The notes under the pieces are model-generated. The model saw nothing but the letters and a program-made list of their open reading frames with translations. It was not told the origin of the DNA and ran no database searches. A program made the translations under genes and the position numbers. From assembly GCA_016208535.1 (NCBI GenBank), contig JACQXW010000010.1, forward strand, positions 1 to 42,007: a stretch of DNA of 42,007 nucleotides, read 5' to 3'. This DNA is from Candidatus Terrybacteria bacterium. Its GTDB lineage: Bacteria; Patescibacteriota; Minisyncoccia; UBA9983. The first letter of the stretch is position 1, and every line of letters begins with the position of its first letter. Shown here piece by piece: positions 25,921 through 29,358 of the stretch.

Positions 25921-29358
<3,438 letters not shown>

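Follow-up and report, generated by a model that had tools for sequence, protein, structure and literature searches.

Insertion sequences and homing-endonuclease genes in the rRNA genes of the Candidate Phyla Radiation (CPR) were reportedly noted by Brown et al. in 2015, and small palindromic repeats spread in reduced genomes elsewhere, such as the palindromic elements of Rickettsia and, in the mitochondria of fungi and algae, mobile GC clusters and double-hairpin elements. Inserts in CPR rRNA genes, both insertion sequences and homing-endonuclease genes of the GIY-YIG or LAGLIDADG type, have since been described in a paper that is silent on palindromes, hairpins, and RNase P (Tsurumaki et al. 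2024, PMC11270868). The intervening sequences (IVSs) of 23S rRNA are described as stem-loops that replace helix tips, occur sporadically and are thought to be horizontally transferred (PMC11270868; PMC4990558). Here, we examine a 42,007-nt stretch of DNA from a Candidatus Terrybacteria bacterium (GenBank assembly GCA_016208535.1, contig JACQXW010000010.1; herein referred to as the window, coordinates without prefix being positions in it), in which a short hairpin that we name PAL (A-CCGAGCACATA(A)-loop-(T)TATGTGCTCGG-T) occurs three times, once inside the 23S rRNA gene. Our comparisons indicate that PAL is probably the hairpin form, devoid of an open reading frame (ORF), of a very small palindrome-ended selfish nuclease element residing in one class of CPR/Patescibacteria.

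The first-pass annotation of the window had reported a palindrome with identical 9-bp arms at three places, and the repetition is exact: CCGAGCACA-N7-TGTGCTCGG matches the window three times (table 1) and matches dinucleotide-preserving shuffles of the window not once, even with two mismatches allowed. The true arms extend to 11 bp (CCGAGCACATA / TATGTGCTCGG) around 3-nt centres, and the stem grows to 14 bp in both copies upstream of the 23S gene (CAACCGAG...CTCGGTTG), the GAT centre of the first being the exact reverse complement of the ATC centre of the second. The third copy, which had been placed about 120 nt inside the 23S gene, indeed lies ~124 nt into the Rfam-placed gene, between GATTTCCGAAT and GGAACCTGCTGAAGTGAAACATC, and folds as RNA into an 11-bp stem (z = -3.3). 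Two explanations had been offered for this recurrence, namely that a small palindromic element inserted at all three places, or that a factor recognizing the 23S helix also binds the promoter or leader copies, a feedback of the kind known for ribosomal proteins that bind rRNA mimics. Our analysis upholds the former and not the latter: PAL behaves as a dispersed, patchily distributed element whose arms match the ends of a nuclease element.

The window's genome (herein G000; 28 contigs, 518,588 bp total, 97% complete) contains four ORF-less hairpins and one ORF-bearing copy. A gapless pattern search of G000 returned the three window copies only; the fourth hairpin was missed by gapless matching and was found by BLAST of the 23S 5' end (match G000:C16:8487-8520). 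It occupies G000:C16:8490-8517, reads CCGAGCACATAAC-TT-GTTATGTGCTCGG and forms helix P12 of the class A RNase P RNA (Rfam RF00010, 166 bits); the 23S copy is this P12 copy less three loop bases. The same RNase P RNA (G000:C16:8289-8752) also has an insertion of ~46 nt in P3 relative to the Rfam model. An orphan PAL arm stands at G000:C6:23372, directly after the stop codon of a minus-strand ORF that contains a GIY-YIG domain (Pfam PF01541, E = 2e-10) and runs off the contig end. Because contig C6 ends 9 nt into this ORF, inside the element (C6:23372-23603), and the nusG side has no match in the assembly, we take the PAL repeat to have broken the G000 assembly at nusG-rplK. An independent assembly (L301; L-numbers denote loci and contigs fetched from other genomes) is 100% identical to C6 over 1719 nt and holds the whole ORF-bearing element in the nusG-rplK spacer (L301:836-1093). 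The 75-aa ORF in it lies between the arms of a perfect inverted repeat of 18 nt (ACCGAGCACATAATTTAT / ATAAATTATGTGCTCGGT), and the arm tips overlap the start and stop codons (A-ACCGAGCACATAATTTAT/G TAT TAT ... GAA T/AA ATTATGTGCTCGGT).

The same build recurs in further lineages and spacers: L302 (nusG-rplK), L303 and L304 (infC-rplT), and L305. In its complete form, the element spans ~260 bp, with perfect inverted arms of 15-18 nt that are the PAL arms and that enclose the gene of a 75-residue stand-alone GIY-YIG nuclease; by sequence, the PAL arms are evidently the terminal inverted repeats of this element. The nuclease has at least 606 homologues of ~75 aa, and the nearest solved structure is 1zg2, a minimal GIY-YIG protein of the UPF0213/YhbQ type (E = 0.002). 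No intron model matched at PAL sites, and the nuclease ORF lies in intergenic spacers between perfect inverted repeats, and the element is thus a GIY-YIG domain carrier that does not reside inside a self-splicing intron or intein. Additionally, PAL arms in the fetched loci bound interiors of 1-10, 14-17, and 64-70 nt.

The link between hairpin and nuclease is borne by the arms themselves. Across 20 nuclease genes, for which identity was measured to the G000 nuclease, eight homologues at ≥65% identity have complete or partial PAL arms (in two, only the right arm was found, the left arm of another contains a one-base insertion, and in one the right arm is degenerate). In L307 (72% identity; L307-type arm ACCCCGCACATAA), both arms are altered with the palindrome kept (ACCCCGCACATAAATTTAT / ATAAATTTATGTGCGGGGT), and nucleases near 50% identity have unrelated arms (ACCCAGCACTTATTTATGT, ACCCCGCCCTCTA, GCCCCTCACTTGAAAAGGA, and G000's own ACCCCGTTAGAG), a pattern in which arm sequence co-varies with nuclease subfamily. 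PAL-armed nucleases also occur in 4 of 19 PAL-bearing genomes versus none of 40 PAL-free genomes (p = 0.0085). G000 itself encodes further mini GIY-YIG genes (C3:30885-31136, C1:16492-16740, C1:19652-19894, C4:32677-32901, and C8:2030-2215) that are 43-51% identical to the PAL type, and those checked have inverted repeats of their own (e.g., ACCCCGTTAGAG); the C4 and C8 genes adjoin tRNA genes, the former with an apparent partial tRNA duplication upstream.

To judge from these scans, the distribution of PAL is patchy and essentially confined to one class, that of the window, with a strong bias toward non-coding, hairpin-tolerant sites. Searches of species-representative genomes and metagenome contigs with exact arms and a centre of 1-8 nt recovered PAL in at least 119 species-representative stretches and at least 120 metagenome contigs, amounting to at least 230 non-redundant places; nearly all records belong to Patescibacteria, the named ones to Parcubacteria-type groups. 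PAL is present in 11 of 401 sampled genomes (2.7%) of the window's own class, which represent 11 different families and genera and whose confamilial genomes are PAL-negative, and in none of the ~377 genomes sampled elsewhere in the phylum. CPR genomes that carry it have 1-9 copies, and a reversed control pattern yields no matches. When CGAGCAC...GTGCTCG alone is required, ~90% of matches still have ATAA...TTAT inside, and the whole 12-13-bp arm is therefore conserved. Among the matches listed, 233 non-redundant copies underlie our statistics on context, loop, and coding: 94% are outside any ORF of ≥100 aa, 41% directly adjoin at least four consecutive T or A, an A precedes at position -1 in 70% and a T follows at position +1 in 66%, and the commonest form (58%) combines a 12-bp arm with a 4-nt loop, the 3-nt-centre copies of G000 being a minority type. 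A 2-Mb bin labelled Deferribacteraceae UBA1873 (DDHP01; L064, L094, L106, L140, L168, and L173) holds 17 PAL-type hairpins, often nested (GAGCA-PAL-TGCTC inside another repeat); either the bin includes CPR contigs or the element also occurs outside the CPR.

The breadth of these records makes it next to negligible that PAL is a chance resemblance or an assembly artefact. Some ~0.3 chance matches are expected in 596 Gb, consistent with two Paenibacillus matches that form a long terminator after a duplicated TetR-family gene and look like such coincidences, and contig C6 of G000 does break at a PAL arm. These points stand against the three window matches where shuffles predict none, against non-redundant copies that many different projects and assemblers have produced, some of them in a closed genome or on contigs of 0.5-0.6 Mb, and against host RNA genes that score normally.

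RNA genes are favoured sites. Before de-duplication, 44 of 254 occurrences (17%) have RNA-gene flanks, as compared with ~1% of a genome; by flank match to G000's own genes, 18 of these belong to 23S rRNA, 19 to RNase P RNA, and 7 to 16S rRNA. Judged by eye and by coordinates, the 23S sites include helices H9/10, the helix after GCCCAAA (~position 244 of the G000 23S), and the H45 region, and the others include a helix of the 16S 5' domain and P3, P12, and the P15-17 arm of RNase P RNA; PAL is also found just after RNase P RNA and beside tRNAs. Intergenic copies mostly lie just after the stop codons of ordinary genes, and copies in ribosomal-protein operon spacers (tuf-rpsJ, rpmJ-rpsM, and ssb-rpsR) often stand beside sibling hairpins that share the base of the stem. 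No recurrent protein family adjoins PAL, the largest cluster comprising 12 of ~230 loci and all clusters being housekeeping genes.

Several loci are of interest in their own right. One 23S gene (L095:1500-2700; metagenome-assembled genome [MAG] JAHCSE01, Bin_194) bears PAL-type hairpins, five or more of them, on the tips of different helices. A structured non-coding context, ...CCTCGG-stem-PAL-ACCAAGC-stem-CCGNAG... with PAL at its tip, recurs in L113:4430-4640 (where it follows directly upon two tRNAs), L082, L218, L243, L221, L300, L135, L080, and L075, and has no match in Rfam even at E ≤ 1. A second, GGGGTCGGGA...AAACCGAGGGTTT...GAGCCCGAA-PAL-GCCAGCC..., is found in L066:60-300, L121, L233, L062, L112, L131, L101, and L076, upstream of either nusG or a gene for a small basic protein, possibly rpsU, and likewise has no Rfam match.

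Such sites invite a reading at the RNA level, in which PAL would be a standard stem-loop for a host factor, or an IVS-like site excised by a double-strand RNase, acting in three stable RNAs (23S, 16S, and RNase P RNA) as well as at mRNA 3' ends and in operon spacers; on this view the element would have borrowed a hairpin of the host, and its nuclease link would be secondary. Enrichment in stable RNAs and in the spacers of highly expressed operons fits this reading, as do positions that include classic 23S IVS sites (the H9/10 region and H45), arms that stay invariant while their surroundings drift, a degenerate rRNA copy in L095 that pairs through G.U on the RNA-sense strand only, and the lack of a cognate nuclease in most PAL-bearing genomes. 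Loop orientation in RNA-gene copies is also biased, 16 to 2 across the four commonest loop pairs, in a sample that is small and phylogenetically non-independent. Terminator-type copies, however, have no such bias, and arm sequence tracks the nuclease subfamily. A perfect A-form helix moreover offers little for sequence-specific recognition by a protein. Finally, PAL is so rare in its class, and so consistently absent from the family of G000 (see below), that no core host factor can depend on it. We regard the RNA-level reading as unlikely and continue to prefer an origin of PAL from the nuclease element.

Comparison with relatives indicates how the hairpin arrived. PAL is absent from 17 genomes of G000's own family, even when three mismatches are tolerated. 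The 23S genes of these genomes show the usual GGGGAAACCC-[H9]-[H10] arrangement, and their P12 helices are native, unrelated both to PAL and to their own H10. Alignment of 23S 5' regions places the replacement precisely: L261 retains H9, and PAL exactly replaces H10, whereas in G000 (window 25921-26100) and its syntenic relative L228 (72-81% nucleotide identity), which carries PAL at the same 23S position, H10 is replaced and H9 and the GGGGAAACCC strand are also missing. The latter loss represents a further reduction of 23S domain I in the G000/L228 lineage. At the promoter site the two differ: L228 reads TTATCCACAGAAA-CCCCGTCCCGCTAAGCAGGACGGGG-TTGACTTT...TATAAT where G000 reads TTATCCACAGCAA-PAL-TTGACTTG, and CCCCGTCCCGCTAAGCAGGACGGGG is a GC-rich, terminator-type hairpin of 25 nt that stands exactly in place of the 25-nt PAL of G000. 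At comparable sites, PAL thus appears to have replaced a pre-existing hairpin and not simply to have been added, and no duplicated flank indicative of a target-site duplication is present at the 23S, P12, or terminator copies. The comparison with L228 also sets an order of events: the 23S copy came first, the terminator hairpin of the G000 lineage gave way to PAL afterwards, and duplication of the 52-nt module containing it, along with a 1.1-kb segment that carries hicBA and a small ORF, followed.

The structure of the upstream copies agrees with their being terminators. They lie 22-45 nt past the stop codons at 24496 and 25574, consist of the 14-bp stem followed by ACTTGTTTTT and are terminator-like by terminator scan; the last three bases of each hairpin (TTG) are the start of the next -35 box. 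Copy 1, of terminator type, follows the membrane-protein gene and abuts the promoter-like site of hicBA, and copy 2, of intrinsic-terminator type, follows the small ORF ending at 25574 and abuts the 23S promoter, downstream of which the leader is homologous to those in L228 and G008. What had been called promoter palindromes are, as far as sequence can tell, intrinsic-terminator hairpins that abut the next promoter and lie upstream of the start of transcription.

These findings bear directly on the feedback alternative, according to which a ribosomal or other RNA-binding protein would bind the 23S helix and the two promoter copies and regulate transcription of rRNA and hicBA. In its favour, the identical sequence occurs at the 23S site and beside two promoter-like sites, and palindromes overlapping a -35 box are typical operator positions. 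The idea is contradicted by L228, which has the 23S PAL and an unrelated promoter hairpin, so that the co-variation between 23S helix and promoter palindrome, which the first-pass annotation had proposed as the test of the idea, does not appear. Nor is the supposed mimic part of a transcribed leader, since the upstream copies precede the transcription start and resemble terminators; the same hairpin moreover occurs in RNase P RNA, 16S rRNA, other 23S helices, and hundreds of unrelated sites, and the arm spacing of 1-8 nt is incompatible with a dimeric operator in duplex DNA. We consider such a circuit very unlikely. A narrower role as an operator of hicBA was ruled out, since hicBA is not recurrent beside PAL and the same module drives the 23S promoter.

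Table 1. Features of the window and transposase-like genes of G000 discussed in the text.
Feature	Coordinates	Strand	Description
Membrane protein, mechanosensitive-channel transmembrane helix	24017..24496	+	Pfam; L228 homologue 82% aa identity
52-nt direct repeat, first copy	24509..24560	+	TTATCCACAGCAA-[PAL]-TTGACTTGTTTTTA, terminator plus -35 module
PAL copy 1	24519..24549	+	PAL proper 24522-24546; centre GAT; fold z = -6.2
Weaker promoter-like site before hicB	24547..24575	+	TTGACT-17-TATTTT, 9/12 consensus positions
hicB (24588-24842) and hicA (24835-25056), toxin-antitoxin pair	24588..25056	+	Pfam HicB_lk_antitox, HicA_toxin
52-nt direct repeat, second copy	25609..25660	+	94% identical to first
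PAL copy 2	25619..25649	+	PAL proper 25622-25646; centre ATC; 14-bp stem; fold z = -7.2
23S promoter	25647..25675	+	TTGACT-17-TATAAT, 11/12 consensus positions
23S rRNA gene, host of PAL copy	25921..29363	+	Rfam RF02541, 2338 bits
PAL copy in 23S gene	26044..26068	+	Centre ACT; effectively 12-bp arms CCGAGCACATAA/TTATGTGCTCGG around single C
Five RAYT-like Y1 genes	G000 C28:2318-2578, C16:2831-3052, C4:25391-25624, C22:28699-28935, C17:24743-24991		~220 aa, HUH + YIHxNP motifs

The two 52-nt repeats differ solely in the 3-nt centre of the palindrome and lie 1100 nt apart, with hicBA as the cargo of the segment inserted between them. This segment (24524-25644, comprising hicB, hicA, and the small ORF) is bounded by the repeats, between which the 3-nt loop is inverted; BLAST of it against L228 gives no match, and it is missing from that relative, in which the membrane-protein gene sits directly upstream of the 23S gene and provides the anchor of synteny. 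The motif TTATCCACA is a perfect DnaA-box 9-mer with 40 sites in the 519-kb G000 versus ~4 expected; they include 23888, 24509, and 25609 in the window and 37 others, are mostly intergenic and often precede a hairpin (the private palindromes of the transposase-like genes discussed next included), and the motif is kept in L228 at the homologous site. A cluster of DnaA boxes at G000:C4:1614-1707 may be oriC.

A third possibility is that PAL is a repetitive extragenic palindrome (REP) or REP-derived REPIN, mobilized in trans by a REP-associated tyrosine transposase (RAYT; Y1, IS200-like). Two points speak for it: PAL, being short, palindromic, and extragenic, often looks like a terminator, and five genes of G000 are RAYT-like, their products showing HUH and catalytic-tyrosine motifs (table 1). 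Yet each of the five is flanked by a different palindrome of its own and none by PAL. Y1_Tnp occurs in 12 of 19 PAL-bearing and 26 of 40 PAL-free genomes (p = 1.0), 1.62 Mb of PAL loci contain two RAYT-like matches, neither of them PAL-flanked, and copy numbers of 1-9 fall short of the tens to hundreds of such families. Mobilization by a RAYT therefore seems extremely unlikely. The RAYT-like genes, with their own palindromes, have a REPtron-like layout and are present in ~65% of sampled class genomes. A REP-like repeat family running throughout G000 was ruled out separately, given four PAL hairpins in all and no genome-wide sibling GAGCAC...GTGCTC hairpins. We also considered Xer/dif-like sites, telomere-resolvase sites, DNA-uptake sequences, and integron attC sites and dropped all of them (the centre is variable, short, and mostly non-palindromic, copies are few, and GTTGACT misfits GTTRRRY).

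We favour a history in which the nuclease would cut DNA at or near sites that form hairpins or cruciforms, and repair would copy the element from another copy; the co-variation of arms with nuclease subfamily lends this indirect support. Short hairpins could arise by loss of the ORF or be copied as hairpins through short matches at the stem base (AACC/GGTT, CCGAG/CTCGG), possible aids of this kind being AACC/GGTT at the terminator, CCGAGCA in the native H10 of relatives, and CCG...GG at the base of P12. Copies would persist where a stem-loop is harmless or useful, such as terminators, operon spacers, and variable helix tips of stable RNAs. In G000, two hairpins took over the terminator hairpin of a terminator/-35 module that was later duplicated, another occupies the place of 23S helix H10, and another is P12 of RNase P RNA. 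A more specific proposal, which we call hairpin homing and hold only tentatively, at rather less than even likelihood, would be a new mode of movement for a mobile element: the 75-residue GIY-YIG protein would recognize DNA able to extrude a stem-loop with an ACC...GGT base and cut it, whereupon repair from a copy of the element would overwrite the native hairpin with the element's arms, with or without the ORF.

Several observations weigh against this interpretation, in which cleavage and copying by the nuclease are inferred steps. A PAL-armed nuclease is lacking in 15 of the 19 PAL-bearing genomes, and many hairpins must therefore be orphans, relics, or kept for another reason, although gaps in MAGs may hide some nuclease copies, as the break of contig C6 illustrates. 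Approximately half of the short PALs have tetraloops containing G or C (AGCG, CUUG, AGCU) and thus do not derive by simple deletion from the form that bears the ORF; among the fetched loci, no single orthologous spacer was found with both an ORF-bearing and a short-hairpin version. Lineages with 23S genes of ~81% identity share all 22 arm bases without change (0.81^22 ~ 0.01), an invariance that would need continuing homogenization or selection on the sequence itself. The orientation bias of loops in RNA-gene copies, described above, likewise sits more comfortably with a function in RNA.

If correct, the derivation of PAL from a nuclease element would provide a very small candidate origin for helix-tip inserts and IVSs in bacterial rRNA and would extend it to RNase P RNA and terminators. 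In two essential RNAs, 23S rRNA (H9/H10) and RNase P RNA (P12), peripheral helices would have been overwritten by the same foreign hairpin of 25-28 nt, which would tell how free such positions are in the reduced ribosomes of the CPR. Hairpin homing, if it occurs, would target structure over sequence, which would explain why PAL is found at terminators and at the helix tips of the genes for 23S, 16S, and RNase P RNA, and could be the origin of rRNA IVSs. The 75-residue nuclease and its 15-18-bp cognate arms would form a compact, tractable system of protein-DNA recognition. In practice, the repeat breaks MAG assemblies and can mislead rRNA-based alignment and structure inference.

The PAL sequence was not found in the searchable literature, and its nearest counterparts are systems that each share some of its features. 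It resembles the inserts of CPR rRNA genes (PMC11270868) in host group, in sporadic occurrence, in position (those inserts lie at the top or base of stem-loops), and in the GIY-YIG genes that some of them encode; the inserts treated there are long, whereas PAL is a hairpin of 25-30 nt or, with its ORF, an element of ~260 bp that has perfect inverted ends, lacks an intron, and occurs beyond rRNA as well, namely in RNase P RNA, terminators, and operon spacers. With homing endonucleases of introns and inteins it has the GIY-YIG domain in common, and here too the intron or intein is lacking. The IVSs of bacterial 23S rRNA (helices 9, 25, and 45; Salmonella, Leptospira, Coxiella, and Alphaproteobacteria) occupy the same positions, the H9/10 region and H45, and, like them, PAL replaces a variable 23S helix tip (H10 in G000, L228, and L261) and is patchily distributed; IVSs are, however, 90-700 nt long and excised by RNase III with no religation, leaving a fragmented rRNA, whereas PAL has a stem of 11-14 bp and also lies outside rRNA.

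Among dispersed repeats, the REP/REPIN sequences and RAYTs of Proteobacteria are similar in being short palindromes outside genes that stand at gene ends and between the genes of operons, at times grouped in tandem, but they are species-specific in sequence, whereas PAL is identical across families, has a very low copy number, lies inside stable RNA genes, and has no link to a RAYT. The Rickettsia and mitochondrial elements resemble PAL in that RNA genes tolerate them at positions that are variable and exposed on the surface; they have no known dedicated enzyme gene and are unrelated to PAL in sequence, whereas PAL shares its ends with a nuclease-encoding parent. In this last respect PAL resembles derivatives of the type of miniature inverted-repeat transposable elements (MITEs): its short form shares terminal inverted repeats with an ORF-bearing parent, and intermediate interiors exist. 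It differs in that there is no target-site duplication, that the parent encodes a minimal GIY-YIG nuclease instead of a transposase, and that an existing hairpin is replaced. We file PAL with selfish elements of the homing-endonuclease type, alongside MITE-like derivatives and the intervening sequences of rRNA.

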